From: an uncultured delta proteobacterium
GTDB taxonomy: Bacteria; Desulfobacterota; Binatia; UBA9968
Direction of reading: 5' to 3'
Assembly (NCBI GenBank): GCA_963755715.1
Contig: CAVWLW010000032.1
Span: 64,001 to 128,000, forward strand
DNA: 64,000 nucleotides
Shown here piece by piece: positions 7,322 to 38,616 of this stretch. The translations under genes and the position numbers were made by a program. Positions within the stretch are counted from its first letter, which is position 1, and each line of letters opens with the position of its first letter. The notes beneath the pieces were generated by a model. The model ran no database searches. It saw only the letters and a list, made by a program, of their open reading frames with translations, and was not told the DNA's origin.

Positions 7322-8153
7322 TTAACTCTGCAGATTTTTCTTAAAAAATTCTAAAGTCCGGCCCCAGGCCTCTTTCGCCGCGTCTTCCCTATAACTCTGT
7401 GGGCTCGTGTCCGAATTGAATGAATGCGGCGCGCCGGGATAGATTTTGTACTCGAAAGATTTACCGTACTTTTTCATCGCCTCTTCCAGTTGCGGCACGG
7501 CCGAGGTGATCGGCTCATCTGCCCCACCATATTGGCCCAAAACCGGCGCCGTAATGTTTTTAACATCTTCAAGGTTCCGTGGATTGCTGCCGTAGTATAT
7601 CACGGACGCCGCCAAGTCTTTGCTCCGCGTCGTAAAGAGCAGAGCTTTACCCCCGCCCCAACAGAAACCAATCACACCGATCTTGTTAGCGCCGACAAAA
7701 CTTTGGCCTTTTAAATAATTGATTCCGCCGGTGAGATCTTTGGTGAGCGTGTCATCGTCCAATTTTCTACCCGCCGCGATGGCCGCTTCGCTACTTGCAA
7801 ACGAACTCGTTCCTCCCTGGCGCGACAAAAGGTCAGGCGCCAGCGCCACGTAACCGGCTTTGGCAAGCCTTCGCGCCACGTCCCGAGTGTGATCACTGAT
7901 CCCGTCCCAGGCATGAATTACCACTACGGCGGGACGCGCAACGTCCCCTTTGGGTCGGGTGATATAGCCGCCGATTGCGGTTCCATCGGTCGAGGCATAT
8001 TTGATCTCCGATGATGTCAATCCAGGATCGTTGGGATCCACCTGTGCGGCATGTGCGATCACCGGCGCCAGCGGATCGATCAGTAGCTTTCCCCGCCGCT
8101 AGACCCCCGGTAACCAGCACGCTCTTTTGGAGAAACTCCCGGCGCGTAACCAT
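7322..8153 (-). CDS. Dienelactone hydrolase family protein with Tat signal; frameshift near 8065-8080
   Basis: AGGAG RBS, MVTRREFLQKSVLVTGG; downstream frame VVVIHAWDG, GVIGFCWGGG, YPGAPHSFNSD. Confidence 0.85.
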
Positions 8154-8170
8154 GTCCCTACTCCTTGATG

Positions 8171-9049
8171 CTAACCTTGCAAATGTTTCTTGAAGAACTC
8201 TAACGTCCGGCCCCACGCATCCTTCGCCGCCTCTGGACGGTAACGGTCCTCCCGCACATCACTGTTAAACGCGTGCGGTGCGTCGGGGTAAATCTTATAG
8301 TCGTACGACTTGCCGTTTTTCTTCATCTCTTCCGCGAGCCTTGGCACTTGCGAAGAAATGGGTTTATCCAGCTCGCCATAGTTGCCCAAGACCGGCGCGG
8401 TAATATTTTTGACTGCATCGAGATCCTTTGGAATCGGCCCGTAGTATATAACCGTCGCCGCCAAATCTTTGCTCTGGGTGGTGAAAAGAAAAGTTTTACC
8501 GCCGCCCCAACAAAATCCGATAACTCCAATTTTGTTGGGCTGGACGAAACTTTGACTCTTGATATAGTTTTGCGCACCCATCAAGTCTTTCATGACGTTG
8601 TCGTCGCTGAGTTGGTTAATCGCTTTCGCGACCTCTTCTCGGCTCGCGAACGAACTAGTGCCGCCCACTCGCGAAACGACGTCCGGCACAATCGCAACGT
8701 AACCCGCTTTAGCCAATCTCCGGCCGACGTCCCGATTATGGTCGTCAAGCGCCCAGTTGTCGCTGACCACGATCACTGCCGGTCGTCTGCCATCTCCCTT
8801 CGGACGGGTAACATAGGCGTTAATTGACGCCCCGTCGTCGGCGGCATATTTAACATCCGTCGATATCAGCGCCGGGTCGTTCGGATCCACTTGATTGGCG
8901 GCATGGACAGCAGTTGGACTCAGCGAATCGAGCAATGACGACGCAACAGCCATACTGCCCGTCCAGAGCATGGCCCGTCGTAGAAACTCTCGACGAGTGA
9001 TCGTTCCCGCTCGATAACTGTCCATCAAATATTTGAGATCTTCTAGCAT
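8171..9049 (-). CDS. Dienelactone hydrolase family protein with Tat motif
   Basis: TRREFLRR, GVIGFCWGGG, YPDAPHAFNSD; GGAGG RBS; clear paralog of 7322..8153. Confidence 0.93.
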   Translation of the reverse strand: MLEDLKYLMDSYRAGTITRREFLRRAMLWTGSMAVASSLLDSLSPTAVHAANQVDPNDPALISTDVKYAADDGASINAYVTRPKGDGRRPAVIVVSDNWALDDHNRDVGRRLAKAGYVAIVPDVVSRVGGTSSFASREEVAKAINQLSDDNVMKDLMGAQNYIKSQSFVQPNKIGVIGFCWGGGKTFLFTTQSKDLAATVIYYGPIPKDLDAVKNITAPVLGNYGELDKPISSQVPRLAEEMKKNGKSYDYKIYPDAPHAFNSDVREDRYRPEAAKDAWGRTLEFFKKHLQG

Positions 9050-9075
9050 GTATTCCTCCTTGTGTTTTTTGCCTG

Positions 9076-9744
9076 CTATTTGATCATATCGATTTTGGTC
9101 AACGTCACTTGCTGCCCTACGCCGGGAGCATTGCCCAGATGATAAGCGGTATACTGCTCAAAATAAGTATTTTCAGACGACATCCCGTCTACAGGGATAA
9201 TAACTTGCAACCCCCGGAACGCAGCCTGACTGGCTGTATTGAGCACGGCACCGTGGGCAGCGGTTCCTACCACTACCACCGTCTTGATTCCCTTATCGTT
9301 TAGGATCTTTTCCAGATCGGTCTTAAAAAACTTATCGGCCGCCGATTTCACTATAGGTTCCCCCTCAAGCGGAGCCACGTCTTTGAGTATATCAGCCGGA
9401 GTGGCTGCCGTCGTGATGCTATGGACGACCAATACGCCTTTGTCTCTGGCGAGTTTCAACAAGGCTTGAACGTGAGGAACCGAAGTCAGACAACGCGGCC
9501 GCCTCTCGGTATTACAAGTCTGTTTTACAAAATCGAGAACCAGCAGGGCCGTCGTCTTAGGATCGAGCGTTACAGTCTTCAATTCGGGAGGTTTTGGCGC
9601 CTGCACTTTGGACCAATCATCGACAATCGTTTGCGCAGATGCTGGAATGGCGCCTTGATAGAAAAAAAAACCAACCACTATTGTAAGCGCATAAAAAACC
9701 GAGGTGAGAATTGAATGGCTTTTCCGAAAAGATATTTTTGCCAT
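9076..9744 (-). CDS. Secreted isochorismatase/cysteine-hydrolase-fold protein lacking the catalytic Cys
   Basis: Signal peptide ending ASA-Q; LDPKTTALLVLDF, DKFFKTDLEKIL, GIKTVVVVGTAAHGAV. Confidence 0.85.
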   Translation of the reverse strand: MAKISFRKSHSILTSVFYALTIVVGFFFYQGAIPASAQTIVDDWSKVQAPKPPELKTVTLDPKTTALLVLDFVKQTCNTERRPRCLTSVPHVQALLKLARDKGVLVVHSITTAATPADILKDVAPLEGEPIVKSAADKFFKTDLEKILNDKGIKTVVVVGTAAHGAVLNTASQAAFRGLQVIIPVDGMSSENTYFEQYTAYHLGNAPGVGQQVTLTKIDMIK

Positions 9745-24255: not shown

Positions 24256-25323
24256 TTATCTTCTTTTCACAAACAATTGGCGCATCAGATTCTCCCATTG
24301 GCTGAATTTCACTTCAAGTTCTTCGAGGGAGAATTTTTCATCGAGGTAAATCTTTTTGAACTTCTGGTCCCGCGTTCCAGTATCCTCGCGCGGCGACCAG
24401 AGTCCGCCTTTCATCATCAGTTGCTGCCCTTCCTTTGAGTGAACGTAGTCGAGGAAGAGCAGGGCGGCATGCGGGTGGGAAGCTTTGGATGACAAACCTG
24501 AATAGCCCACAGTCGTGACCACCGGCTCCAGCGGACGCCACTCGATTGGCGCGCCTTTTTGTTTCGCCACGGTCACGTCGGCGTCGAAAATTGTCGGCGA
24601 CAAGGGCACTTCGCCTGACGCCACCAGCCCGGCCAACGCGGCGCCGGACATGTCCTGGACCTTGATATCCTGTTCCGCCAACTTGTCGAGGAACTCGCGG
24701 CCCATGATCTCGATAGTGCTGCCGATCCAGCGCACTCCGGTGGAAGTGCCGGCGATAGACATTTTGCCTTTCCATTTCGGATCGAGCAGGTCCTTGATCG
24801 TCTTCGGACCTTCGTTCGTTGAAATCAAAGTGGTGTTGAATCCCAAGCTGTTGTAAGTCTCGCGATTGCCGAGATAATAGACACCGGTTTTTCCTTTCGA
24901 CTTGACGGTGTCGGGGTAGAAGCGCGCTTCCGGAGTAAAATATTCTTGAAACAAGCCGTCGCGTTTCATCAATCCCATGCCTTCAGAAGTCGTTTCGACA
25001 ACGTCGACAATGGCGCGGCTGGAGTTGAACTCCTCCATCGCCCGGCGGATCAGGTTCTTTGAATCATTGCGCCACTCGGAAACCTTGATGAAAGGATACT
25101 TTTTCTCGAATTCCTTGACGTAGGTGCGAAACCAGGTGTGCGAATCATAAAGAGTGAATTGTCCTTCGCGCTTGGCGCCTTCGATGAGAATCTTTTCCCG
25201 ATCCGCGCCTTGATACAGAGCTAACTGCGCGATTGTCATCGGCGCCGCAGCGTTAGCTTGGAGTGCGGCGGACGTCAGACAAATAAAGCTAGCCAAGATC
25301 AAGCGTAAAATCTTCGTTTGCAT
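24256..25323 (-). CDS. ABC substrate-binding protein (Fe3+/thiamine-like family)
   Basis: Signal peptide; GAKREGQFTLY, LGFNT, DLLDPKWKGK, HPHAALLFLDY..SKEGQ. Confidence 0.92.
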   Translation of the reverse strand: MQTKILRLILASFICLTSAALQANAAAPMTIAQLALYQGADREKILIEGAKREGQFTLYDSHTWFRTYVKEFEKKYPFIKVSEWRNDSKNLIRRAMEEFNSSRAIVDVVETTSEGMGLMKRDGLFQEYFTPEARFYPDTVKSKGKTGVYYLGNRETYNSLGFNTTLISTNEGPKTIKDLLDPKWKGKMSIAGTSTGVRWIGSTIEIMGREFLDKLAEQDIKVQDMSGAALAGLVASGEVPLSPTIFDADVTVAKQKGAPIEWRPLEPVVTTVGYSGLSSKASHPHAALLFLDYVHSKEGQQLMMKGGLWSPREDTGTRDQKFKKIYLDEKFSLEELEVKFSQWENLMRQLFVKRR

Positions 25324-25363
25324 GCTTAAAGTTGTCTCCCTCCCTACGCGCCGGTAGGGCTAT

Positions 25364-26440
25364 CTATCTTTTGCGGATGAAGAGCTGGCGCAGCAGCCCT
25401 TCCCACTGGCCGATTTTTGCTTCCATCTCTTCGGACGAATACTTTTCGTCTAAATAATTTTTCGTAAATTTCTGCTCCAAAGAGCCCAAATCTTCGCGCG
25501 GCGACCAGAGTCCACCCTTCATGATCAATTGCTGGCCTTCCTTGGAAAGCAGGAAGTCGATGAAGAGAAGAGCCGTATGCGGGTTGGCCGCTTTGGCTAA
25601 GAGCGCCGCTGAACCGACGGTCGTGACGACAGGCTCCAGAGGACGCCATTCCACCGGCGCGCCCTTCTGTTTGGCTAGTGTTACGTTGGCATCGAAGATC
25701 GTCGGCGACAGCGGGATTTCACCGGAAACGACCAAGTTGATCAGCGATGCCGGCGCCATATCTTGCACGCTCATTTCCTGGTCGGCCAACTTATTCAAAA
25801 ATTCGCGCCCCAAAGTTTCCAGCACGTTGCCGATCCAGCGAGCGCCGGTCGTCGTGCTGGTGATCGCCATCTTGCCTTTCCATTTCGGATCGAGCAGGTC
25901 TTTGAGGTTGCGCGGCGCGACGGCCGGAGGAATGAGCTGCGTGTTGAACCCCAAGCTGTTGTAAGTTTCACGGTTCGGCAGATAAAAGAAGCCGGTTTTG
26001 CCTCGCGGCTTAAGCTCGTTCGGATAAAAGCGCGCTTCAGGAGAATAGTACTCCTGAAACAATCCTTCGCGTTTCAAAACGCCCATGCCGTCGGCGGTGG
26101 TTTCGACGATGTCCGCGATCGCGCGTCCTGATTTGTTTTCCTCCAGCACTTTGCGAATAATGTTTTTGGAATCATTGCGCCATTGCGTGGCGCGCACGAA
26201 GGGATATTTTTTCTCGAAGCTCGCGACGAAGGTTTTGAACCAGGTATGCGAAGTGTAGAGCGTGAATTGCCCCTCGCGCTTGGCGCCGTCGATGAGAATT
26301 TTCTCCCGATCGGCGCCTTGGTAGACGGCCAGTTGCGCCGGAGCCATCGGCGGGGTGGCAGCCATTGCTGCCGTAGCGCACGACCAGTAGACGAGACAAA
26401 TGAAGGTATCGAAGAACGATCGGGCGCGCCGTAGAAACAT
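25364..26440 (-). CDS. ABC substrate-binding protein (Fe3+/thiamine-like family)
   Basis: Close paralog of 24256..25323 with the same motifs; GGAG RBS. Confidence 0.92.
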   Translation of the reverse strand: MFLRRARSFFDTFICLVYWSCATAAMAATPPMAPAQLAVYQGADREKILIDGAKREGQFTLYTSHTWFKTFVASFEKKYPFVRATQWRNDSKNIIRKVLEENKSGRAIADIVETTADGMGVLKREGLFQEYYSPEARFYPNELKPRGKTGFFYLPNRETYNSLGFNTQLIPPAVAPRNLKDLLDPKWKGKMAITSTTTGARWIGNVLETLGREFLNKLADQEMSVQDMAPASLINLVVSGEIPLSPTIFDANVTLAKQKGAPVEWRPLEPVVTTVGSAALLAKAANPHTALLFIDFLLSKEGQQLIMKGGLWSPREDLGSLEQKFTKNYLDEKYSSEEMEAKIGQWEGLLRQLFIRKR

Positions 26441-26466
26441 TGTCCGTCTCCTTCAGCTGAACCATC

Positions 26467-27412
26467 TCACAACCGCAAGGTGTTTTTGTTCTCTTTCAAC
26501 CAGGCCGCCAGCCGTGCGATGCCTTCTTCCAAATAGATTTTTGGTGTCCAGCCCAGCTCGCGTTTTGCCAGCGAGATGTCCAGCGGATCGCGATTCCGGT
26601 GGGGTGCGACTTCGGCGGCGTTCGGGTGCTGGCCGATTTCAAACTTCAAATCAGGCAGCGCTTTTTGAATCGCGCGCTGCAAATCTTCACTCACGTATGA
26701 TTGATCAAGGCCGATATTGTAAGCGCGACTGAGCGGCTTGTCGGCGAACAACGCTCGACTAATGGCATCTACGACATCATCGATGTAGATCAAGTCGTCG
26801 AGCGGGCGGGTGAGAAAAGGCCGGCAGGGCTGGCCGAGGATGCCTTTTTTTAACTCCAGTGGGATGCTCCGGTATAAGCCCGGGCCGTAAACCGACGAAT
26901 ATCTAAGGGCGACGAAATCGACGCCATGTTTCTCTTTGTAGAAGTCGCCCATCCATTCTGACACGGTTTTCGCGGCGCGATAAAAATAAGTGGGATAAAT
27001 CGAGACGGCGTCTTCTTCTTTGACCAAACTTCCGTCCGGTTTTTTAAGTTGACCGTAGATCGAAGCAGAGCTTGAATAGACAATTCGTTTCATGCCGAAT
27101 TCTTTTGCCGCTTCCAGGATGTTCGTCATCGCGTGATAGCAGTAGTTAATCACGGAGGGATCTTCATTCCGCGGCGGGTGCGCAGCATGGAAAACATGCG
27201 TGGGCCGCTCCTTTTCGCAGAGCGCTCGGAAAGCTGCAGCATCGGTCACATTCATGATGTGGCTCGGCGTTTTGATACCGAGCAGCGAGAGGTCCGGCGA
27301 GCGCGGCACGACGTCGATGGGAACGATTTTATGTCCAAGAGCCTCGATCAATCGACTCGCGTGCGAGCCGATGAAGCCGTTGGCACCGGTGATCAAGACC
27401 GTGCAGTGACAT
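26467..27412 (-). CDS. NAD-dependent epimerase/dehydratase (extended SDR); probable 1-nt insertion just after the start
   Basis: VLITGANGFIG, YSSSASIYG, YRAAK (YxxxK), LRYSSVYGPG. Confidence 0.88.
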
Positions 27413-27431
27413 GATATTATCTCGTTCGGTG

Positions 27432-28508
27432 TCAGTGCCTGCTGATGAACAGGCGGCGCTTCAAGCCTTCCCACTCGGCGAATTTTCGCTCCATGACCTC
27501 GGGCGGATATTTGCTCTCGATGTAAACTTTCTTGAATTTTTGGCCCGGCGAAGCAACATCTTTTCGCGCCGAGCTTAATCCGCCTTTCAGCACCGCTTCC
27601 TGTCCCTCTTTGGAGTGGAGGTAATCAAGGAACAGCAACGCCGCGTGCGGATTGGGCGCTTTGGCCACCATGCCGGAAGTGCCGGTGGTCGCAATTACGG
27701 GATCGATCGGCCGCCACTCCACCGGCGCGCCTTTTTGTTTGGCGACAGTGATATTCGAATTGAAGATTGTCGGCGACAGCGGCACTTCGCCCGATGCGAT
27801 GAGCTCAGCAAGGGCGGCGCCGGAAATGTTCTGCACGTTGACGTCTTGCTTGGCGATCTTCTCGAGAAACTCGCGGCCGTAGGCTTCGATTACGGCGCCG
27901 ATCCATTGCGTGCCCGTGGTCGTGCCGGCAATGGACATTTTGCCTTTCCATTTCGGGTCGATCAGATCTTTCATCATTCTTGGCGCGTCAGCAGGCGGAG
28001 TAAGACTCGTGTTGAACCCCAGGCTGATGTAAAGCTCACGACTGGTCCAATGGAACACGCCGCTTTTGCCCTTGACTTTGACATTTTTATCGTAGGCACC
28101 GAGTTCCGGCGAGAAAACTTCTTGAAACATATGGGCTGGGATCAACAGCGCCATGTAATCGGGACTGGTTTCGACCACGTCGGCGATGAAACGTACCCGC
28201 CGCAGCTTCGTCGGTCAAGCGCTTGAGCAATTCTTTCGAGTCGCTGCGCCAGACGTTGGTCTTGATGAACGGATATTTGCGGCCGAATTCCTGTGACACA
28301 TAGTCCTGCCATCCAAGTATTCGAAGTGTAAAAGGTGACTTGCGCCTTCTTTCTTCGCGCCTTCGAGCAGGATCTGTTTCGCGATCTTTTCCTTTATAAA
28401 GAGCCAGCTCGGCGACGGACATCGGCTTTGCCTGAGCCGCCAAGCGACAAAGAAACTGGCCAACCACATGATCAGTGCGACGAGAACGAGTAAGCATCTG
28501 ACAGACAT
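27432..28508 (-). CDS. ABC substrate-binding protein (Fe3+/thiamine-like), several frameshifts between 28190 and 28450
   Basis: GGAGG RBS and signal MSVRCLLVLV; fragments ELALYKGKDRE, LLEGAKKEG, KYPFIKTNVWRSDS, then intact C-terminal ORF 27432..28178. Confidence 0.8.
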
Positions 28509-28540
28509 CGAAAATCCTCCTTGAGAGACCGGCCGCGCTA

Positions 28541-29721
28541 TTAGTCGAAATAACCGTTCTTGTAGGCCCAGAGCCAGAGATAGGCGATTTTTTCGTTGTA
28601 CAGTTCGGAATAACCGACGTGGCCATAGCGCGGGATCAAAACCACGTGCGCGCCGCGCGTCGCTCGCGGCGTACTTGGCGCCCATGAACATCTCGCGCTT
28701 GTGCTCGAGCTTCTCACCTTTGACCCAGTGGCCTTTGTCGTTTTCGCCGACAGTGAGCAGCACACGAATGGTTTTCAACCAGTTCGGATCGGGTTCCTGC
28801 AAATGATCGAAATATTCTTCGCGCGGCAGACCGGTGCGCTTGGGATATTCTTCGAGAATGCCGACGGCGGCATTGTGCTGATTGTCGCAGAGACTCGTTT
28901 TCATCTGCGAGCGCAGCGGGCTGATGAGACGAATGTAATCGTCGGCGCCACCCCAGGGCGTTAAATCCTCGGGATCGACGTAACCTGATTCCTTGAACGA
29001 ATCGGGTGAGCGCCGTGAGACGTGATCGATGGGTTTTTCGGTGTACTTTTCCGCGCCGGTTTTATTTCTCCATTCGAGCCGCCAGCCGTCGGGACCGCCG
29101 CTGCCGAAGCCGACGATGCCAATGACCTTCGTTTTCTTTGAAAACCGCGTGAGATGCGCGGCCATCGGTCCACCCGTGGAATGACCGAAGCCGATGATTT
29201 CCCTTCCGGCAAAGTGCTCGTCAGTCAGCAGCCCGGCGCCCTGCAGGATGACGTTGAAGGTGCATTTCAGGTTGCGGTCTAAAACTTCGTCTTGGGGCAG
29301 ATCGCGATCTTTGAGGTAGATCGGATTTCGCTCGGCGATCGGTTGTTTCCATACGCCGCCGAGCGGGTAATGGCCCGGATAGGTAAGCGCCAGCACTTTG
29401 AATCCTTGTGCCGCGAGCACGCGCGCCAATCCGGGCCGCCCGTCAGGCGTCAGATCCATGATCTTTTCGCTGCCCGCGCCGCCGTGAAAGAAAACAAAAG
29501 CCCGACGCGGATCGGTTTCTTTTTCCGGCGTGTATAAGCGTGCCGTGCATGTCCCAGTCATAGCCGTTGCGCTGATAACGAGTCCAAGCATCGGCAGTGG
29601 TTACTTGGGTGGCGCTGTAAGGCGGTTCTATCGCCAGCCATTCATCCCAGCTCAGCTTCAACAGCAAGTCGTTCGATTTTAGGCCGGCAAGAAATTTTTC
29701 GGTGGCGCTATTCATCGACAT
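28541..29721 (-). CDS. Uncharacterised alpha/beta-hydrolase-like protein; frameshifts near 29545 and 28660
   Basis: FFHGGAGS, GFKVLALTYPG, GHSTGG nucleophile elbow, VGENDKGH, PRYGHVGY across three frames. Confidence 0.7.
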
Positions 29722-29734
29722 GCAACTTCCCCTT

Positions 29735-30569
29735 TTAACCTTTGGCTACGTAGTGGTCGAGGTAATACTTGGCGATTTCCCCTTTGGTCGCAAACCATAC
29801 ATTGGGAAAACCCTTGGCGTAACGGATGCACTCTTCAAAAACGCCGATGATGTTCGGCCGCCCGCCGATGTGCGCATGCACGAGACAATCGATGAGCTTG
29901 GGCGCGCCGGCTTGGCCTTCGGCATATAGACAGTCGAAGGCTGCCTTGAAGCTGTCGAAATAAACCCGTGCGGGATTTTTGTGAGTGAACAGGAGGCTCA
30001 AGTCGTTGGCGTAATCCAACCGCGGCATGATGACGATCGGTTTGCCATTGACAATCGCGATGCTGCGGGATATCGGGTCCCGGCAGGTCACCGGTCCAGA
30101 AAATGCCTTCATCCACATAGTGGCCCAAACTGTATTCATTGATTCGATGGCCGGGACTGACCCACCCCACCGGGCGCTTACCGGTCACGGAGCCGAGGGC
30201 GTCGAGAGTTCGCCGGATGAGATTTTTCTCCGCCTCGGCATCCAATGAAGATAGCGCGGTGTCATTGACCCAGCCGTGGCCGACGATCTCATGACCGCCG
30301 GCGTGAAGTTCCTTCAACGCATCGGGAAAATCTTCGGCAATACGGCCGTTGGTGTCGATAGTGCCTTTGACGCCATTGCGGTTTAGCGCGTCCATGATGC
30401 GCCAGATGCCGGCTTTGCCACCGTATTCGCCATAAGCAAGCGAGGCGTAGTCGGGTTTGCCGTCTTCGCTGCGGCGATATTGGGAGGATTTTTCAAAGGC
30501 CTCGAAGGCGACAAAAAAGCTGACGGCGATTTTTGCGTCATTGGGCCACTTGATCGGTTTGAGTCTCAT
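29735..30569 (-). CDS. Polysaccharide deacetylase family (PuuE/allantoinase-like); frameshift near 30070
   Basis: WPNDAKIAVS, YGEYGGKAGIWRI, HEIVGHG, GKRPVGWVSPG, then FDCLYAEG...HAHIGGRP...VWFAT. Confidence 0.85.
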
Positions 30570-30582
30570 AGCTTTGTCCTTT

Positions 30583-31596
30583 CTAGGATTTTGGCGCCCC
30601 GAAAATATTCCGGAAGAGCTCGTTGTATCGGTTGAAGTCTTCGCCCGCGCCGATGTCGTCGATGACGTAGTTTAGCTTATCGATGCCTTGAGCCGTTGTC
30701 GGTATGCCGCGTCGTGTCGGCACGCGGCCGAAGGAAGCGATGATCTTTTGACCTTCCTCGCCGAGCATGAAATCGATGTACAGCCTTGCCGCATTGGGAT
30801 GAGCGGCCTTGGAGCCAACGCCGATTGGTTGAAACTTGGTAAAAACCGGATCCTGCGTAACCCAATCCACCGGCGCGCTTTTACGCTTGGCGTCTTCGAC
30901 ATTGTGCAAATAGGTGTTCAGCACGAGAGGAAACTCGCCTGCGGCCAGAAGGCCGGTCAGAATGGTCAGGCCCGAGTATAGCTTGAATTCCTGGGCGCCG
31001 AGTTTTTTCATGTAAGCCAACCCCTTTTCTTCTCCCATGCGCTTGACCTTCCAGGAAAACCATTCGGGCTTGGAATGATCCATGCCGATCTTGCCCTTCC
31101 ATTTCGGATGCAACAATTCTTCATCGGACTTGGGCACCTCGTTGCGCTTGACCAGGCGCGTGTTGTAGCCGATCACGTTCGGCATCATGTAGACCGCCGC
31201 CCAATATCCGTCGGGATCGAAGAACGGTTTTTGGATATTTTTCACTTCGGGCGAAACATACTTGGCAAGCAAGTTCTTTCTTTTGAGAAAATAGGCTTGG
31301 GTCTCGGCGGACTGAACGACATCGAAATCATACTTGCCGGCTTGCGCCTCGGCCATGATCTTGGTCAGCAAGCGTTCGCCGACGGCGCGAAACATGGAGG
31401 GTTGGATAAACGGATATTTGGCTTTAAAGGCGTCATTCAGTTTCTGCGCCTGGTCGACTGTCATCGAGGTGTAGATTACCAACGCGCCTTCTTTTTTGGC
31501 GCCTTGAATGAACGCCTCGTCGCTAGCGCGGACTTCGGCACTGATAATAAAAAACATCGTCAGTGCCACGAAAAAAAATCCACGACTTACGCGCAT
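30583..31596 (-). CDS. ABC substrate-binding protein (Fe3+/thiamine-like family)
   Basis: Signal peptide; GAKKEGALVIYTSM, IGYNTRLV, AAHPNAARLYIDFML. Confidence 0.92.
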   Translation of the reverse strand: MRVSRGFFFVALTMFFIISAEVRASDEAFIQGAKKEGALVIYTSMTVDQAQKLNDAFKAKYPFIQPSMFRAVGERLLTKIMAEAQAGKYDFDVVQSAETQAYFLKRKNLLAKYVSPEVKNIQKPFFDPDGYWAAVYMMPNVIGYNTRLVKRNEVPKSDEELLHPKWKGKIGMDHSKPEWFSWKVKRMGEEKGLAYMKKLGAQEFKLYSGLTILTGLLAAGEFPLVLNTYLHNVEDAKRKSAPVDWVTQDPVFTKFQPIGVGSKAAHPNAARLYIDFMLGEEGQKIIASFGRVPTRRGIPTTAQGIDKLNYVIDDIGAGEDFNRYNELFRNIFGAPKS

Positions 31597-31727
31597 GATC
31601 ACACCTCGAAATAGAATCGAGGCGAATAGTATCAAGCGGCGGTGAAGAGCGTCAACCGGTTAGACCGAATAGGCAGATTTGTTCGCGTCGCGGCGGAGAA
31701 GGTCGCCGAATTAAATCAGCTCGGTGA

Positions 31728-32987
31728 TCAATTTTCCGGACATTTGCCGGTGGTGAGGTGGGCTGCGAAATCGGCGGGAAAAAGTTTTAGTGCGCTCTCG
31801 ATCGGCGGACCGGGCATCCCGATGAGGCTACAAAACCCTTTGCCTTTATTGAAGGCCAGTATTTTTCCGAACTGCTCTAAGATCGGCTGACCGCCTTGTC
31901 CCGCCTGGACTTTCTTTAGCATCATCGTCAGTGTGCTGGTCTCCATGCGACAGGCGGGACATTGGCCGCAGGATTCCGCGGTGAAAAATTCCGAAATCTT
32001 CAAAACTTCTTCGACGATGCAGGTCCCTTCGGGAATCAAGCGAACGACGCCGCATCCGAGCGCCGAGCCGGCGTCGCGCATCGAGTTGGGATCAAGGGGC
32101 GTGTCGATCTTGTCGGCTGGCAGAAACGCCGACGACGGCGCGGCCGGCATGATCGCTTTTATTTTTTTGCCGCTTTTCATGCCGCCGCCGCATTCTTCGA
32201 TCAGATAACGCAACGGCATGCCGAACGGCAGCTCATAAACTCCCGGCCGATTGACATCGTCGTTCAACGAAAAGATCATCGTCCCAGAACTCTCGGCCGT
32301 GCCGAACTTGCGATACCAGTCGGCGCCGCGCAAAACGATCGGCGCGACATTGGCGAGGGTTTCGACGTTGTTGACCAACGTTGGTTTACCGAACAAACCG
32401 ACGGTGACGGGAAAGGGTGGTTTTTGCCGCGGCCAAGCTTTCTTTCCCTCGATGACTTCGATTACCGCCGTATCTTCCCCGGCGACGTAATTATGCGGCG
32501 CAGCTGTGACTTCAATGTCCAGATCAAAACCGCGGCCGAGAATATTTTTTCCTAAGTAGCCGGCGTTTTTGGCCTCGGCAATCGCGTCATTGATGCTCTG
32601 GGTCGCAGCGTCGTATTGGGCATTGATATAGAGATAAATCTTCGTTGCGCCGATCGCATAGGCCCCGAGAATGGCGCCCTCGAGCACCAAATGGGGTAAG
32701 TTCTCGAGCAATACTCGGTCTTTTTTGCTGCCCGGTTCGTCTTCGCCGCCGTTCACTACCAGGTAGCGCGGCTGCTCGGGGGCTTCGCGCGTGAATTGCC
32801 ATTTTTTTCCGGTGGGAAAACCCGCGCCGCCGCGGCCGCGCAGACCGGCGTCCGAAACTATTTTGATGAGCTCTTCCGGAGATGCCTGGAGCGCTTTGCC
32901 GAGCGCCTCGTAGCCACCTCGACTGCGATAAGCGCTTAAGCTTTCTCTTCCCTCGGGCACACCGTGCGGGAAAAGGATGCCTTCCAT
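31728..32987 (-). CDS. Stand-alone NuoF/HoxF-like FMN-[4Fe-4S] NAD(P)H oxidoreductase subunit
   Basis: GLRGRGGAGFPTGKKW, NGGEDEPGSKKDR, YVAGEDTA, PTLVNNVETLAN, ESCGQCPACR...GFC; no other nuo genes in the window. Confidence 0.92.
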   Translation of the reverse strand: MEGILFPHGVPEGRESLSAYRSRGGYEALGKALQASPEELIKIVSDAGLRGRGGAGFPTGKKWQFTREAPEQPRYLVVNGGEDEPGSKKDRVLLENLPHLVLEGAILGAYAIGATKIYLYINAQYDAATQSINDAIAEAKNAGYLGKNILGRGFDLDIEVTAAPHNYVAGEDTAVIEVIEGKKAWPRQKPPFPVTVGLFGKPTLVNNVETLANVAPIVLRGADWYRKFGTAESSGTMIFSLNDDVNRPGVYELPFGMPLRYLIEECGGGMKSGKKIKAIMPAAPSSAFLPADKIDTPLDPNSMRDAGSALGCGVVRLIPEGTCIVEEVLKISEFFTAESCGQCPACRMETSTLTMMLKKVQAGQGGQPILEQFGKILAFNKGKGFCSLIGMPGPPIESALKLFPADFAAHLTTGKCPEN

Positions 32988-32990
32988 GGA

Positions 32991-33314
32991 CTAGAAAACC
33001 CCCGTGTCGAGAAGTTGATAGATCAACTCTTTCAGGGAAGAGTCGATCGTGTCGAGCCGCTGAACGTGCGGCCCGCCGGCCAGATGCTCGGTGATCTCGT
33101 CGAGGTCCTCCACCTTCACTTTGGCGTACCAGTTCTTTTCTGGGTAAAGCACGATGTTGGGACCTTCCTGGCAAGCGCCGAAGCACATATAGGACTTCAC
33201 CTCGACGTCGGTCAGCCCTTTATCGTCGATCCGTTTTTGCAGTTCCGTCATGAGCTGCTCCGAGCCACGCGATTTACAATCTATATTCTGGCAAACGAGA
33301 CACACTCGACTCAC
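32991..33314 (-). CDS. Thioredoxin-like [2Fe-2S] ferredoxin (NuoE C-terminal-domain-like)
   Basis: CQNIDC...CFGACQEGP(N)IVLYPEKNWY; AGGAG RBS and GTG start; 3 nt from the NuoF-like start. Confidence 0.9.
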   Translation of the reverse strand: MSRVCLVCQNIDCKSRGSEQLMTELQKRIDDKGLTDVEVKSYMCFGACQEGPNIVLYPEKNWYAKVKVEDLDEITEHLAGGPHVQRLDTIDSSLKELIYQLLDTGVF

Positions 33315-33382
33315 GGGGTTTCTCCTTGTGTTCTACTTACTCGTGCGCAAACGGAGATGCAATAAGCCGACGGCCGGCCAAG

Positions 33383-34490
33383 TTAATTCATCTGTAACTG
33401 GGTTACCCAGTCTTTGCCTTCTATGATTTCCGCCAGGATGCGTTCATCTTCTGGCGTCGGAAGAGCATCGCTCAGGTGCTTTTGATACTCCTCCGGGGTT
33501 AATGACTCCCCGGTCACGCTGTACGTTTTGCCAACATACTCGCCGATCGAGCGATTGAATTTGAGATCGGGCGCATAGAGCTTCGGTTGGTCTGCGGGAA
33601 TCAATTGATTGAGTTGGTCGATGAGTTTGCCGCTTTCTGTCATGTAATGAGAGCGCGCCAAATCATTCAATCTATCCTTCTCAGCGGGCAACGGTAGCCT
33701 CATGTTCGTCGAAGCGACCTTTCAACCCCCAGGTGTAAGTCCAGTGCGCCGACGACGAATGATCCGTCCCAAACAGATCGTAGGCGGTCGACAGCCACTT
33801 ATTAAAGTATTTTTGCATGATCGGTATCGGGATCTTGCCGGCTCTCAAAATGCGCGTTAATCCCGTATGGCCGGTAAACATGTGAAAAAATTCTTCCTTC
33901 AACATCGCCGTGACGCTTTCTGCCAACGGCGCAAAGGCCGAATGGGAAAGCATCGTTAACTGATATTTACCGTCGCGATCGACAAATTCGGTGTAGGTGA
34001 AAAAGTCTAGCCAGTTATTAACCGGCGCATTGAACGACCCCAGCAGCCGGTCGCCGCGGAAGGCGCGTCGCTCAAGGAGCTTGCGCGCCTCCAACTTCCC
34101 CGAATCGCCGAAATAGTTCACCAGCAAGTAACACATCTGCCAGCCATGACGCATTTCCTCGCTGTTGACGCGGGTGAGCGCTTGCCGGTCGTATTCAGTC
34201 GGCGCGGTATCGAGGAGATTTTTCTGCTGCTCGACCGAGGCGAATTCGGTATCGCCCTGGTAGACGATCAGATTCATCAAGGCATCGCGTATGGATTGAT
34301 TGGGAATCTGCGTGAGCCGTTGCCATTTCGCCTGACCTTTAAAGTCGCCGAATTCGATCTCAGGGGAGTGCAATTCGCCCAGCTTGGTTTCAAACTGGTA
34401 ATTGCCAAGTAGCGCTGGATCGTAGCCAATATCCTGTTGCCATTGACGAAAATAATCTACCCAGTCTTCGAAAGTTGAAATTTTGACCAT
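33383..34490 (-). CDS. BoxB/PaaA-like diiron (ferritin-like) acyl-CoA oxygenase/epoxidase, ~368 aa; single-base frameshift near 33690
   Basis: QGDTEFASVEQQ, EEMRH, FVDRDGKYQL, SAFAPLA, MLKEEFFHMFTG, DLFG..SS.A...WGLKGRF parallel the BoxB motifs QGDTEPASVEQQ/EEGRH/DRDGKFQL/EEAHH. Removing 1 nt joins ORFs 33681..34490 and 33383..33703. Confidence 0.88.
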
Positions 34491-34511
34491 GACAATTCCT
34501 CTCGGTTATAG

Positions 34512-34529
34512 TTCGAACGATCGTTCGAA
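34512..34529. promoter_or_regulatory. Perfect 18-bp palindrome TTCGAACGATCGTTCGAA, candidate TetR-type operator
   Basis: Exact inverted repeat 21 bp upstream of the BoxB-like start, covering the predicted transcription start. Confidence 0.7.
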
Positions 34530-34533
34530 AATA

Positions 34534-34562
34534 AGAATAACCTTTGATGGTCAGTAAATCAA
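34534..34562 (-). promoter_or_regulatory. Putative sigma70 promoter TTGATT-17-TATTCT for the BoxB-like operon
   Basis: -35 at 34562-34557, -10 at 34539-34534, 17-bp spacer. Confidence 0.55.
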
Positions 34563-34574
34563 CCCCAGGAGCAA

Positions 34575-36980
34575 CTAATGATACATTTCGAGCAACTCGA
34601 CCATGCCGAGCTCACGCGTTTGCTCGAATAAATATCTTTTAATTTCACCGACTTCATCCATTTCGAGAACGATTTCGGCAACGGCTTTGGCGCCTTGATA
34701 ACTAATCGAGCGAATCGCTTTCTTGATGACCGGAATGTAAAGCGAGCCCGTGCTGAACTCTTCCAGACCCATGCCGAGCAGCAAGATCGCGCAAAGCGGG
34801 TCACCCGCCATTTCACCGCACATGCCCACCCGTTTCCCCTCCCGTTTGCCAGCGGCGATAGTCGAGTTCAGGGCGGCCAGAACCGCGGGGTGCAACGGTT
34901 CGTATAGGTTTGCCACCTTGCGATTGCTGCGATCGACGGCGAGGAGGTATTGGATTAGATCGTTGGTTCCGATACTCAGAAAATCAACTTCGCGTAGAAA
35001 ACGGTCGGCGAGTTGGACGGCGGCAGGCACTTCCACCATAATGCCGAGCTCCATCTGCCGATCATAGGGGGTGCCTTCCCGATCGAGCTCATGCTTGGCT
35101 TCGGCGAGAATTTCTTTGACTTTCTGAATTTCTTCGAGACTTGAGATCATCGGAACGAGCAGCCGAACTCGACCGAGATCACCGACCCGGAGAATAGCGC
35201 GCAACTGGGTTTTGAAGATCTCTTCGACTTCCAGCGAAATGCGGATCGAACGCCAGCCCAAAAATGGGTTTGGCTCGGCTGTCACGCTGCGCATGTAAGT
35301 CGGGTATTTATCCGCGCCGATGTCCAAAGTTCGAATGGTCACCGGCCTGCCCGCCATAGCTTCGACGACGCGGCTGTAAAGGGAATACTGCTCCTCTTCG
35401 CTCGGAAAGTCTCGATGCGATAAAAACGGAATCTCAGTTCGGTAAAGACCGATGCCTTGGGCGCCGTGGAGTTGGGCAAAAGCCACGTCGCTGAGTAAAC
35501 CGATATTCGCGTAAAGCGAGACGCGGCGGCCATCGGTCGTTTCTGCCGGCAAATTCTTGAGCTCGCCGAGCTCACGGTTCAGCTCGGCATAGTCGCGTTC
35601 TAAGCGGTTGTATTCGCGGATCACTTCCGGATTCGGATTGACGTGCACATTCGCGGCGTTGCCATCGATGATCAGCATATCGCCTTGATGAACCGACTCC
35701 ATCAATCCCTCGATAGCGACCACGGTTGGGATCTCGAATGATTTCGCCAAGATTGAAGCGTGTGAAGTGACGCCGCCGGTCGCGAGCGCGATGCCCTTAA
35801 ACTTATCTCCTTCAAGCATGCTGAGATCTGCCGGCGAGAGATCTTCCGCGACCAAGACTGCGTCGTCGGGAATATTGTAGGGCTGGTCCGACAAGCCGTT
35901 GAGATTTTCCAGCAGCCGTTGCGCCGCGTCCCTGACATCGGTGGTGCGCTCGCGCAGGTAGGGGTCGTCGATTTTCGCGATCGAATCCAAGTAACGTTCA
36001 AAAACCACTCTGATCGCGTATTCGGCCACATATCTTTCTTTTGAAATCTGGTTTTCGATTTGCTCAATCAGCGCGGGGTCTTCTAAAATCAGGCGGTAAA
36101 CGTCGAAAATCGCGCTTTCCTCTTTGGAGATCAAAAAGTTCATGCGATTCTTGACCACGTGAACCTGTTCGATGCCGCGCTCCACGGCGCCGCGAAAGCG
36201 GTTGATCTCGCGCTGCGGGTTTTTTGCGAGTTTCTTCTTGATCGCACTCAGATCCATGCGCGGCTCCAAAACGAATGCTCGGCCCCGGCCAAATCCCGGC
36301 GATGCCGCCAGGCCGTTTAAACGACCGCGCCAGCCCTGTTTGGTTTTAGCGGTTTTTTCGCGACGATTACCCTCGTAGGAGCGCAGTTTGCGCATCGCCT
36401 CGTTCATGCGCTTTTCAAATTCCTTGCGTTCCTGCTCTTTGCTCTTCAGGGAGTCGGCGAGGCGCGCTTGAACCAGAATGCTCGCCGCTTGCCCCGAAAT
36501 CGTCGTGAGCAAGCGAATTTCATCGCGGGAAAATTCGCGCCGCCTCGACGTCTGCACGACCAAGACGCCGAGCGGTATTTTTTGTTGAAACAGCGGCACG
36601 CCGAGAAAAGAGTGAAAATGCTCTTCATGCGTTTCCGGGAAATATTTGTAGCGCGGATGTGCCAGCGTATCAGCGACCATCACCGGCTTCATGCGCTCAA
36701 TCACCAAGCCCGTTAGCCCTTCGCCTATGCCCATCGAGACTTTGTCGACCGATTCCTGGTCCAAGCCCATGGTCGCGCGCAAGGTCAGACGGTTGGTGTT
36801 GCGGTCCAGGATGTAAATCGAACAGACTTCGGTCTGCATTCTTTCGGCTACGGTGGCGACGATCCGCTCGAGTGTCTCCTGCAGGTTATGCGAATGGCTG
36901 ATCAGGGCGCTGATATCCTCAAGGATATCGAGGTGGGGCGGAGTGTTACGGTTCGGTTTTTTTGTCGGTCTCTTCGCCAT
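34575..36980 (-). CDS. ptsP: Phosphoenolpyruvate-protein phosphotransferase with N-terminal GAF domain (EI-Ntr type)
   Basis: GAF domain (EVCSIY...GEGLTGLV...HPRYKYFPET...SFLGVP), phospho-His GGVTSHASILA, GIGLYRTE, EPNPFLGWRSIR, SIGTNDLIQY, MCGEMAG. Confidence 0.95.
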   Translation of the reverse strand: MAKRPTKKPNRNTPPHLDILEDISALISHSHNLQETLERIVATVAERMQTEVCSIYILDRNTNRLTLRATMGLDQESVDKVSMGIGEGLTGLVIERMKPVMVADTLAHPRYKYFPETHEEHFHSFLGVPLFQQKIPLGVLVVQTSRRREFSRDEIRLLTTISGQAASILVQARLADSLKSKEQERKEFEKRMNEAMRKLRSYEGNRREKTAKTKQGWRGRLNGLAASPGFGRGRAFVLEPRMDLSAIKKKLAKNPQREINRFRGAVERGIEQVHVVKNRMNFLISKEESAIFDVYRLILEDPALIEQIENQISKERYVAEYAIRVVFERYLDSIAKIDDPYLRERTTDVRDAAQRLLENLNGLSDQPYNIPDDAVLVAEDLSPADLSMLEGDKFKGIALATGGVTSHASILAKSFEIPTVVAIEGLMESVHQGDMLIIDGNAANVHVNPNPEVIREYNRLERDYAELNRELGELKNLPAETTDGRRVSLYANIGLLSDVAFAQLHGAQGIGLYRTEIPFLSHRDFPSEEEQYSLYSRVVEAMAGRPVTIRTLDIGADKYPTYMRSVTAEPNPFLGWRSIRISLEVEEIFKTQLRAILRVGDLGRVRLLVPMISSLEEIQKVKEILAEAKHELDREGTPYDRQMELGIMVEVPAAVQLADRFLREVDFLSIGTNDLIQYLLAVDRSNRKVANLYEPLHPAVLAALNSTIAAGKREGKRVGMCGEMAGDPLCAILLLGMGLEEFSTGSLYIPVIKKAIRSISYQGAKAVAEIVLEMDEVGEIKRYLFEQTRELGMVELLEMYH

Positions 36981-37054
36981 TGGCTGCGGCGCAGCGCCGC
37001 GCTTTCTATAAAACACAATTCGCGCTTCTTCGCTAGGGAGCGACTCCGCTGCGT

Positions 37055-38113
37055 TTATTGTTGGAGCGGCCGCGATCCGCGCCGGCGAAAGTGCGGCGCT
37101 CGGTCGGGCGCGAAAAATCCAGGAAGAGGTTCGCCGCACGGACAGCGATCACCGTGGAGATTGTTCTCCAAGATCTCGTGCCAAGAGCGGCGGATCAAGG
37201 CTCGAGAGCAGGCCGAACAGTAGGTCGTTTGTCCTTCGTCGTCGTGGACATTGCCGACGTAGGCGAATTTGATGCCGGATGATTTCGCGATCTGGCGCGC
37301 GCGCGCGAGGGTCGTCGCTGGTGTGCGTGGTTTATTGGTCAACTTAAAATCCGGATGAAACGCTGTGAAATGCACCGGCACGGCATCGCCGAGGTGGTTA
37401 ACGATCCACTCGCAAAGCCGCTTGGTTTCATCGGGATCGTCGTTTTCGCCGGGGATCATCAGGTTGGTGATCTCGAACCAAATGTCCGTTTCGTGTTTGA
37501 GCCAATTGAGCGTAGCGAGCACCGGATCGAGGTGAGAGAAGGTCAGTTTGTGATAGAAGCGTTCGCTGAAAGCTTTGAGATCGACGTTGGCGGCGTCGAT
37601 ATGCCGAAAGACTTCCGGCCGGGCCTCGGGCGTAATGTAGCCGGCGGTGACCATGACGCTTTTGAGCCCGCGTTCACGCGCCACATGCGAAATGTCGATG
37701 ACAAACTCGCCCCAGATCACCGGATCATTATAGGTGAAGGCGATCGCGGGCACGCGGTGTTTGAGCGCGAGCTGGACGACTTGTTCGGGGCCGATCTGAA
37801 GGCTCTGCGCTTCGTCGAGCTTGGCCTTGCTGATGCTCCAGTTCTGACAAAAGCGGCAGCCCAAGTTGCAACCGGCCGTGCCGAAGCTCAAGATTTCGCT
37901 TCCCGGTAAAAAGTGATTGAGCGGTTTCTTTTCGATGGGATCGATGGCGAAGCCCGTCGACGTTCCATAACCGAGCGAGTACAGCTTGCCGCCGATGTTC
38001 TTGCGAATGTAGCAAAAACCAGCTTGGCCCTCGCCGATGCGGCAAAAGCGCGGACAAAGCGTGCAGAGTGCCTTGCCGTCGCCCTCCGCATGCCACCAGA
38101 GCGCTTCCTTCAT
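37055..38113 (-). CDS. amrS: AmmeMemoRadiSam system radical SAM enzyme
   Basis: CTLCPRFC...GFC, DPIEKKPLNHFLPG, GCNLGCRFCQNWSIS (CxxxCxxC), FTYNDP, HFTAFHPDFKL, YVGNV. Confidence 0.92.
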   Translation of the reverse strand: MKEALWWHAEGDGKALCTLCPRFCRIGEGQAGFCYIRKNIGGKLYSLGYGTSTGFAIDPIEKKPLNHFLPGSEILSFGTAGCNLGCRFCQNWSISKAKLDEAQSLQIGPEQVVQLALKHRVPAIAFTYNDPVIWGEFVIDISHVARERGLKSVMVTAGYITPEARPEVFRHIDAANVDLKAFSERFYHKLTFSHLDPVLATLNWLKHETDIWFEITNLMIPGENDDPDETKRLCEWIVNHLGDAVPVHFTAFHPDFKLTNKPRTPATTLARARQIAKSSGIKFAYVGNVHDDEGQTTYCSACSRALIRRSWHEILENNLHGDRCPCGEPLPGFFAPDRAPHFRRRGSRPLQQ

Positions 38114-38204
38114 GAGGAAAATATCCCGCTTTTGACGCGGCATGGCAAGGGCGAAACGTGGATAGCCGGTCCGGATTTTCTTTTGATTGTGTTATAGTTC
38201 GACT

Positions 38205-38616
38205 ATGGGTGGAATCGCAGGACTAAAAGGCATGCGTCATGTCGCCCTCAAAGTTAAGAACGTGGCGCGATCAAAAAAGTTTTATCAAGAAATCCTCGGC
38301 ATGGACGTGGTCTGGGAGCCCGATGCCGAGAACGTGTATCTTTCGTTCCGGCTGCGACAACATTGCGATCCACGCTGTCTCGGCAAATTTCGCGGCGAGC
38401 GCGGAAGAAAAGCAATTGGATCACCTGGGCTTCATCGTCGAAAGCACCGAGCGGGTAAAAGAATTGGAACAGGAGTTTATCGCCAAGGGGGTGCGCATCG
38501 TTCACCCGTTCAAAGCGCACCGCGACGGCAGCGCGTCGTTTTACTGCGCAGACCCCGACGGCATCGTGATCCAGATGCTTTACGAGCCGCATTTGAGCAT
38601 GCAAAGGATCGAGTGA
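38205..38616 (+). CDS. VOC/glyoxalase family protein; frameshift near 38345
   Basis: GMRHVALKV...FYQEILGM, then LDHLGF...HRDGSASFYCADPDG in the next frame. Confidence 0.82.

Follow-up and report, generated by a model that had tools for sequence, protein, structure and literature searches.

The 64,000-nucleotide stretch of DNA analyzed here (hereafter, the window; positions 64,001 to 128,000 of the forward strand of contig CAVWLW010000032.1, assembly GCA_963755715.1) comes from an uncultured soil delta proteobacterium of the Binatia and carries, between positions 31728 and 34490 on the minus strand, three genes that probably form an operon that is complete in itself, is controlled by a repressor and encodes a three-component diiron oxygenase, dependent on NAD(P)H, for a benzoyl-coenzyme A (CoA)-like thioester. 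The first gene (33383-34490) encodes a short BoxB-like diiron protein of the Pfam family PF05138 (PaaA_PaaC), 368 amino acids (aa) long when intact and split in the window; the second (32991-33314, 107 aa), with a GTG start codon and AAGGAG 8 nt 5' of it, encodes a thioredoxin-like [2Fe-2S] ferredoxin; and the third (31728-32987, 419 aa) encodes a NuoF-like flavoprotein with flavin mononucleotide (FMN) and [4Fe-4S] sites and the Pfam domains Complex1_51K, SLBB and NADH_4Fe-4S. All three genes are transcribed in the same direction, with gaps of 68 nt after the diiron gene and 3 nt after the ferredoxin gene, which is the compact arrangement described in an earlier note on this DNA made from the sequence alone (the original prediction). 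In the proposed scheme, NAD(P)H would give a hydride to the FMN of the NuoF-like protein, single electrons would exit through its N3-type [4Fe-4S] cluster to the ferredoxin, and the ferredoxin would reduce the diiron center, which would activate O2 and epoxidize or hydroxylate the ring of a benzoyl-CoA-like substrate. Transcription would start from the operon's own promoter and would probably be repressed by a PaaR/FadR-like regulator of the TetR family bound to a palindrome until an acyl- or aryl-CoA effector arrives.

The diiron protein shares its fold and its metal site with BoxB. The closest intact relative, P0002, stood in for the broken window protein, and BoxB was represented by the Azoarcus evansii structures (PDB 3PER and 3PM5) and by the annotated protein of the boxCBA cluster of Mycetohabitans rhizoxinica. 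The originally predicted length of about 368 aa holds for the intact relatives, whereas the reading frame in the window is broken into pieces of 269 and 106 aa. The family is large, with 5473 clusters, formed at 90% identity, at E ≤ 0.001, and each of the first 120 shares 90% or more identity with the query, most being 368 aa long; relatives are encoded in at least 593 species genomes, and a search of the ESM Atlas returned BoxB-family clusters only. The AlphaFold2 model of P0002 (predicted local distance difference test score 91.7; predicted template modeling (TM) score 0.90) matches the BoxB structures with TMq of 0.87-0.90 at 31% sequence identity, and the next structural matches, SSO1313 and PaaA, have TM-scores of about 0.5-0.55. 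In the available text of PMC5489048, the diiron ligands of BoxB are given as E120, E150, H153, D211, E240 and H243, and the second-shell residues that position benzoyl-CoA as Q116, T119, S123, F193, F203/F206 and T210. Mapping through a HMMER alignment to 3PER and an alignment to the Mycetohabitans protein identifies E82, E112, H115, D171, E200 and H203 of P0002 as the ligand counterparts, so that the complete BoxB-type set (E, ExxH, D, ExxH) that had been read from the sequence is indeed in place. None of these six residues varies among 35 family members, and neither do the counterparts of Q116, T119, S123 and F193; that of F203 is retained in 34 of the 35.

Among the named protein family models, the BoxB model TIGR03225 is the best match for the diiron gene, with 212 and 27 bits for the two pieces in the window, 236.3 bits for P0002 and 217-254 bits for three other relatives, against a cut-off of 499.1. 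Judged by these scores and alignments, the protein is BoxB-like at the metal site, yet outside the BoxB equivalog. The likeness to BoxAB thus comprises the fold, the ligands and the retained second-shell residues, at about 31-38% identity; what sets the two apart is the size of the diiron protein (about 105 residues fewer, through four deletions and a shorter C-terminus, 368 vs about 470 aa, in line with the difference of roughly 100 aa originally noted), the lack of detectable BoxA and BoxC, and the nature of the putative donor genes, a thioredoxin-like ferredoxin and a NuoF-like protein. BoxA is a reductase of the ferredoxin-NADP+ reductase (FNR) type with two [4Fe-4S] clusters. PaaE, the corresponding component of PaaABCDE, is an FNR-type reductase too, by the domains listed for it in the available part of PMC13186573. 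No match to BoxA or BoxC above the cut-off was found in the genome of the window or in five complete triad-bearing relatives, so that the lack of boxA and boxC, originally noted for the window, extends to the genome as far as matches above the cut-off go, and in these six genomes there is no sign of BoxA co-occurring with this clade. With PaaABCDE, which is a CoA-ester ring epoxidase, the triad shares the PF05138 family and an operator that fits the Thermus PaaR box described below; unlike a genuine PaaA, P0002 scores 38.3 bits on the PaaA model TIGR02156 (cut-off 280), and no PaaA above the cut-off was found in the genome of the window, where no search was aimed at PaaB, PaaC or PaaE.

The two remaining genes encode what appears to be a split version of a known type of NADH-oxidizing module. 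The ferredoxin matches PF01257 with 33.1 bits (cut-off 24.8), and its best matches among solved structures are the N-terminal thioredoxin-like domain of HydB (7q4v, residues 8-92) and Aquifex Fd4 (1f37), with only weak matches to NuoE-type proteins. The four cluster cysteines (C8, C13, C44 and C48) are invariant in 29 sequences, which bears out the assignment as a thioredoxin-like [2Fe-2S] ferredoxin, and in the same 29 sequences the C-terminal tail IDxSLKELIYQLLDTGVF, which extends beyond the alignment with Fd4, is conserved and in parts invariant. Among solved structures, the flavoprotein matches NfnB (9n5u), NuoF of three bacteria and HydB best, in each case through the segment at about 129-535 in the long forms. 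Given these matches to successive segments of HydB and NfnB, the two genes are, by sequence comparison, collinear with the first two-thirds of HydB/NfnB (residues ~8-535), split into two reading frames 3 nt apart. The FMN and NADH motifs are present, and the N3 cysteines (C340, C343, C346 and C386) are invariant in 24 orthologs, in agreement with the NuoF-like FMN/[4Fe-4S] protein that had been predicted. The triad flavoprotein thus shares the FMN, NADH and N3 cluster motifs with the HydB, NfnB, HoxF and NuoF modules, to which it is about 40-46% identical. The differences from HydB and NfnB, in which these parts form one chain, are the distribution over two genes, the position outside the HydB clade and the lack of the C-terminal domain with two [4Fe-4S] clusters, in that no ferredoxin-type 4Fe-4S domain was found and the flavoprotein ends with the NuoF core. 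The neighborhood differs as well from that of the known flavoprotein modules: the flavoprotein gene adjoins the ferredoxin and diiron genes and a gene for a solute-binding protein, with no nuoE or nuoG beside it, and, in keeping with the original prediction, the stretch of the window from 22.7 to 44.2 kb yielded no nuo gene and no gene for a hydrogenase or a formate dehydrogenase.

The proposal that the diaphorase module of complex I had been recruited does not survive phylogenetic analysis. On the NuoF model TIGR01959, the triad flavoprotein scores 432.1 bits (cut-off 558.65), compared with 624 bits for the true NuoF of the same genome, which is encoded in a nuo-like gene row on contig C21. 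In a library clustered at 50% identity, the triad flavoproteins fall into clusters of their own, and everything else is at most 49% identical. In two trees, one built with FastTree from 168 rows and the other with IQ-TREE (LG+C20, quick search) from 55 rows, the triad flavoproteins form a single clade (support 99), the nearest neighbors of which are unlabeled proteins of 410-530 aa that score 263-388 bits on the NuoF model. One branch, starred in the tree, splits this assemblage from 31 rows that include all the labeled NuoF, HoxF, FdsB and HydB proteins (NuoF of Escherichia coli, Ensifer and the genome of the window, HoxF of Cupriavidus, two FdsB and a HydB) as well as a further homolog encoded on contig C51. 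The separation from bona fide complex I subunits is seen in both trees, and on this phylogenetic evidence the triad flavoprotein is not derived from within the NuoF of complex I. The clade also has a signature of its own, NGGEDEPGS and YVAGEDTA, where the classical proteins have NADExEPGT and YxCGEETA. In one sister protein, P0122, a segment homologous to the second half and the tail of the ferredoxin is fused in front of the NuoF-like core (pairwise E = 7e-12), an arrangement that argues for joint action of the ferredoxin and the flavoprotein and suggests that the tail of the ferredoxin faces the flavoprotein. For another protein of the sister clades, P0124, a search for related loci gave a single, unrelated locus at 39% identity. 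Co-folding of an intact diiron relative with the ferredoxin gave scores of 0.36, 0.26 and 0.20, compared with a mark of 0.32, and counts neither for nor against binding. As a separate observation, the C51 homolog (C51:13428-14633 in the genome of the window, G000) is the third NuoF homolog of this genome; it scores 497 bits on TIGR01959, groups with proteins of 560-580 aa near HoxF and FdsB, and is followed by an open reading frame of 717 aa.

The association of the three genes is conserved well beyond the window. The 80 best loci were divided by the identity of the diiron gene into a close group (29 loci, at least 72%) and a distant group (51 loci, 58-65%). In the close group, the ferredoxin gene comes next in 28 of the 29 loci and the NuoF-like gene is present in 27, the misses (L015 and L033) being located at a contig edge. 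The flanks of the closest loci consist of radical SAM and PtsP-like genes upstream and genes for solute-binding proteins, deacetylase and hydrolase downstream, whereas the more distant members of the close group have TctC/TctA and luciferase-like genes upstream, on the other strand, and a Leu/Phe-tRNA transferase gene downstream, so that the triad is the only invariant part of these loci. Most of the close loci are labeled Binatia; some are short contigs with other phylum labels that have the same flanks at 70-90% identity. The genomes tell the same story: this type of diiron gene (at least 71% identical) is found in 32 of 40 relatives of the window's genome (a count that includes an unpublished genome, G018), and 30 of these 32 have the NuoF-like gene no more than about 700 nt away on the same contig, the other two having the genes on separate short contigs. 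The conservation that the original prediction proposed to check is therefore seen at both levels, in spite of the differing flanks. The distant loci are labeled mostly Acidobacteriota, along with Gemmatimonadota, Chloroflexota, Planctomycetota and one Thermoplasmatota; a thioredoxin-like ferredoxin is encoded nearby in only 3 of the 51, and fragments of a NuoF-like gene in one. Many of the distant diiron genes belong to TetR-headed operons together with genes for enoyl-CoA hydratases (ECH), aldehyde dehydrogenase (ALDH), 3-hydroxyacyl-CoA dehydrogenase (HCDH) and a molybdenum enzyme of the xanthine dehydrogenase family, and such neighbors support a CoA-thioester substrate for the diiron family. 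In a diiron protein tree rooted with BoxB, the triad-linked proteins form one clade (support 96) and two ferredoxin-linked distant proteins another (support 100), in a mutual order that the tree does not fix. Parts of the diiron and ferredoxin genes are represented in contigs from RNA-labeled libraries, and one such contig bridges both genes, which is weak evidence of expression.

The operon probably has its own promoter and a putative PaaR-like operator. The 84 nt between the stop codon of the upstream PtsP-like gene and the start of the diiron gene contain, on the minus strand, a -35-like hexamer TTGATT (34557-34562), a putative -10-like hexamer TATTCT (34534-34539) after a 17-nt spacer, a perfect 18-bp palindrome TTCGAACGATCGTTCGAA (34512-34529, no strand assigned), 22-39 nt 5' of the start codon, and a ribosome-binding site GAGAGGA (34497-34503) upstream of the diiron start. 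The -10-like hexamer is a weak match that a simple consensus scan does not list. An alignment of 17 upstream regions of close relatives, some of which follow a different gene, shows all these elements in all 17; in the -35-like hexamer TTG is invariant and the following A nearly so, and in the -10-like hexamer TA is nearly invariant. The 12-base core CGAACGNTCGTT precedes the diiron gene in 27 of the 29 close loci; of the other two, L027 lacks upstream DNA and L028 shows no match. In the 7.4-Mb genome of the window, the triad site is the only match with 0-2 mismatches; with up to 4 mismatches allowed, there are 50 matches, compared with 29 in a reversed-sequence control, and no further regulon members can be named. 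The palindrome recurs as TTCGAACGAACGTTCGAT directly 5' of, or at the start of, the TetR gene that heads the short-BoxB operon in eight acidobacterial loci. The encoded TetR protein resembles acyl-CoA-responsive regulators of the FadR/KstR2 type and matches no named equivalog; its best homolog in the genome of the window is 41% identical and is encoded at C35:40689-41393, beside an ECH-ECH-HCDH-HCDH-thiolase row on contig C35. Genome G008, in which the three components are separated, has two copies of the palindrome between the ferredoxin gene and divergent ECH and diiron genes and a third copy 52 nt 5' of the unlinked NuoF-like gene, so that the palindrome marks all the separated units, a regulon-type link between the three components.

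The likely class of the regulator comes from the sequence of the operator. The available text of PMC6651687 describes PaaR as the TetR-family protein that represses the Thermus operon for phenylacetyl-CoA epoxidase and gives the operator consensus 5'-CNAACGNNCGTTNG-3', credited to Sakamoto et al. The core CGAACGATCGTTCG, inside 34512-34529 and just after the -10-like hexamer, fits this consensus. The palindrome also resembles the SOS-box motif CGAAC-N4-GTTCG, but its assignment as a LexA (SOS) box was rejected: the lexA box of this lineage differs, and the SOS-box motif is not enriched in the genome (12 occurrences vs about 8 expected). The lexA gene itself (L106, G000:C25, about 1458-1477) is preceded by TACTGAAATTATTTTCAGTA, an SOS box of the CTG-N10-CAG type, which shows the LexA motif used by this lineage.

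The placement of NuoF-type flavoprotein and ferredoxin genes among oxygenase genes has a genomic precedent. On the Rhodococcus pyridinivorans plasmid NZ_CP040721.1 (L090, 1173-5286), genes for a NuoF-like protein of 422 aa and a ferredoxin of 71 aa lie in a Rieske dioxygenase operon that also encodes isochorismatase, a short-chain dehydrogenase/reductase, a ring-cleavage dioxygenase and a C-N hydrolase, and this pair may function as the reductase in a multi-component dioxygenase for N-heterocycles; the operon presumably resembles the hpo cluster for 2-hydroxypyridine. The differences from the triad are substantial: the oxygenase is of the Rieske type, the flavoprotein, at only 34% identity, falls on a long and distant branch, and the ferredoxin is of another kind. 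A similar NuoF-like/ferredoxin pair is found on a Cnuibacter plasmid (L093), after a gene for a ferric-reductase-like membrane protein. Literature searches found no description of an architecture that combines a short BoxB, a ferredoxin and a NuoF-like protein.

Several observations weigh against the three-component oxygenase for a benzoyl-CoA-like thioester. The evidence in its favor is wholly comparative, and the diiron gene copy in the window is interrupted. P0002 scores under half of the BoxB family cut-off, and two of the substrate-shaping residues are changed, the counterpart of F206 being Y in 33 of the 35 family members and that of T210 being V or I in all 35. The operon contains no gene for a CoA ligase, a ring-cleaving hydrolase or an aldehyde dehydrogenase, and no BoxC was found in the genomes covered by the search. 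The pathway cannot be traced in full. Finally, in 5 of the 40 relatives (G045, G048, G050, G051 and G053, all of the same order), the ferredoxin-flavoprotein pair (ferredoxin 76%, NuoF-like protein 65-66% identical) has no adjoining diiron gene, so that the pair is not strictly tied to a neighboring diiron gene.

The most serious competing explanation, which is plausible although we favor it less than the broader assignment of which it is a sub-case, is that the enzyme is simply a benzoyl-CoA 2,3-epoxidase, with the reaction and the substrate of BoxB, a swapped reductase, and the downstream steps catalyzed by an unlinked ECH and aldehyde dehydrogenase. The BoxB fold, the full set of ligands and the conservation of five of the seven named benzoyl-contacting residues would fit such an enzyme, as would the acidobacterial homolog that sits among ECH, ALDH and HCDH genes and the presence, in the genome of the window, of an ECH-ALDH pair (C44:85685-88043) and of the C35 row, which consists of TetR, ECH, ECH, HCDH, HCDH and thiolase genes (C35:36092-41393). 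However, BoxC is above the cut-off in none of the six genomes tested, the score on the BoxB model and the replacements at the F206 and T210 positions speak against an unaltered substrate and reaction, and the unlinked ECH and ALDH genes share only about 40% identity with those of the acidobacterial clusters and have no operator that was found near them.

A less likely reading, though one to be taken seriously, draws on a BoxB homolog in secondary metabolism: the triad would hydroxylate the ring of an aryl-CoA, or oxygenate some other CoA ester, rather than form an epoxide. The available text of PMC7966384 assumes that CysC, a BoxB homolog in cystobactamid biosynthesis, hydroxylates para-aminobenzoic acid-CoA (pABA-CoA). 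The altered residues next to the iron-binding aspartate could change the outcome of the reaction, and the lack of a BoxC match fits a product that needs no ring-cleaving hydrolase. However, the function of CysC is itself an assumption in that source, and CysC, which is set beside the triad by description only, belongs to a nonribosomal peptide synthetase (NRPS) biosynthetic context and is proposed to hydroxylate, whereas no NRPS, polyketide synthase or other biosynthetic genes were found near the triad. The PaaR-type operator and the beta-oxidation-type neighbors of the acidobacterial homologs point to catabolism.

A still less probable reading makes the ferredoxin and the NuoF-like protein a general NAD(P)H:ferredoxin oxidoreductase that serves other clients, next to which the diiron gene persists as inherited synteny. 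The five relatives that retain the pair alone speak for this possibility: they encode only the distant type of diiron protein, at 160-180 kb from the pair in the single-contig genomes G050 and G051, and the pair may serve this distant copy or have further clients. In G051, the pair follows TctA/TctC with about 390 nt to spare (L109, G051:C1:1585000-1599000, 8007-9556); no remnant of a diiron gene was found there, nor was the palindrome found at the pairs of G051 and G045, the two that were fetched. (The distant diiron copy of G051, L110, lies beside a transposase-like gene and a gene for a CCG-domain Fe-S protein.) Also on this side are the distant pairs of NuoF-like and ferredoxin genes in unrelated actinomycetotal contexts and one of the two distant genomes with a diiron-adjacent ferredoxin. 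Both these genomes encode a triad-type NuoF-like protein elsewhere (57% and 54% identical), a co-occurrence that in itself counts in favor of the three-component oxygenase, and in one of them, a member of the Terriglobia, a second thioredoxin-like ferredoxin gene precedes the NuoF-like gene, at 815 kb from the diiron-ferredoxin pair. On the other side, the adjacency of the three genes outlasts a complete turnover of the flanking genes, the three genes lie under a single promoter/operator region, the G008 operators mark all three separated units, and five distant genomes with a short BoxB gene and no adjacent ferredoxin also lack this type of NuoF-like gene, having ordinary NuoF matches only (41-44% identity). 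The original proposal that the ferredoxin and the NuoF-like protein replace BoxA or PaaE as the electron donor therefore fares well in part: the persistent adjacency, the G008 operators, the P0122 fusion, the lack of BoxA and BoxC and the conserved active site all favor it, whereas the derivation from complex I has to be abandoned, and the existence of pairs without a diiron neighbor, or in another oxygenase context as in Rhodococcus, weakens the exclusive link to the diiron protein.

The interruption of the diiron gene in the window is most likely an assembly error. The gene is represented by two reading frames, 33681-34490 (269 aa) and, in another frame, 33383-33703 (106 aa). Across the junction, intact relatives read ...EHEATVPAEKDRL..., and the window reads ...EHEATVAR followed by a stop codon; the reading in the intact relatives implies one extra base in the window at 33692/33693. 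At least six further genes between 21000 and 38650 of the window match their orthologs in two or three frames, with the breaks in a deacetylase at ~30056, a hydrolase at ~28660, an amidohydrolase at ~23745 and 22716, a gene at ~21090 and a glyoxalase-like gene at ~38250-38345. Three contigs from other samples, one from a DNA library and two from RNA-labeled libraries, cover the site, and all three lack the extra letter (a fourth run among the other-sample contigs has no cover at the frameshift); none of the sequencing runs screened for the source reads contained more than 0.52 of the sampled words. An uninterrupted copy of the gene is present in 21 of 24 genomes of the same genus (again including G018), the exceptions being G033, in which the gene shows stops, and two genomes with no match that are 65% and 80% complete. 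In view of the frameshifts in six or more other genes within 16 kb and of the intact gene in 21 of the 24 genomes, the extra base, which is certainly present in the sequence as given, is probably not in the organism, and this answers in the same two parts the concern, voiced originally, that the frameshift at ~33690 could be real; the density of frameshifts also suggests an indel-rich assembly, so that gene calls from this genome need care. The least probable of the alternatives, a genuine, recent pseudogene in a decaying operon, can draw on the extra base and the stop codon that follows, on the lack of a long homopolymer at the site and on the stops in G033, but is at odds with the clustered frameshifts, which are typical of an indel-rich assembly, with the 94-98% identity that both halves of the gene retain to P0002, with the uninterrupted contigs from other samples and with the intact gene in most of the same-genus genomes compared.

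The three-component diiron oxygenase, if correctly identified, would be of broader interest. Diiron CoA-ester epoxidases (BoxAB and PaaABCDE) are the entry points to the ‘hybrid' aerobic pathways of benzoate and phenylacetate degradation, and to our knowledge, all those characterized use FNR-type reductases. Electron supply by a NuoF-type flavoprotein and a thioredoxin-like ferredoxin would, if true, be a new electron-transfer design in oxygenase biochemistry. More tentatively, and with a little less than even confidence, we suggest from the comparative evidence that these could be the first diiron ring oxygenases powered by a hydrogenase/complex-I-type flavoprotein, within a PaaR-like regulon of an undescribed, BoxA- and BoxC-independent aerobic route for aromatic CoA esters that many Binatia-like soil bacteria would possess, as would, with other electron donors, many Acidobacteriota and Gemmatimonadota. 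The abundance of the family suggests that ‘benzoyl-CoA 2,3-epoxidase subunit B' annotations in soil metagenomes hide an unstudied pathway of uncultured lineages. The conserved operator offers an experimental handle because the effector of the repressor should reveal the substrate.

Three gene sets in the genome of the window resemble the accessory genes of the acidobacterial operons: the C35 row, the ECH-ALDH pair on C44, and genes for a three-subunit enzyme of the xanthine dehydrogenase family (C64:174393-178260) with a large subunit that is 49% identical. These unlinked sets are candidates for the downstream steps by their gene content, with no operator found near any of them.

The remaining genes between 22.7 and 44.2 kb encode four phnS2-like solute-binding proteins, a PuuE-like deacetylase, an alpha/beta hydrolase, an epimerase, two amidohydrolases, a PtsP-like GAF-enzyme I protein, a radical SAM protein and a protein of the xanthine dehydrogenase family. 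The four solute-binding paralogs, all on the minus strand (24256-25323, 25364-26440, 27432-28178, which is truncated, and 30583-31635), are interspersed with the deacetylase, the hydrolase, the NAD-epimerase and an amidohydrolase, and no gene for a permease or an ATPase was seen in the stretch examined (24256-31635). On the other side of the triad, the PtsP-like protein (854 aa), which combines GAF and PEP-utilizing enzyme I domains, is encoded by a gene that overlaps the end of the radical SAM gene by about 85 nt (34575-38143 for both, minus strand), and this gene pair is kept 5' of the triad in the closest relatives only.

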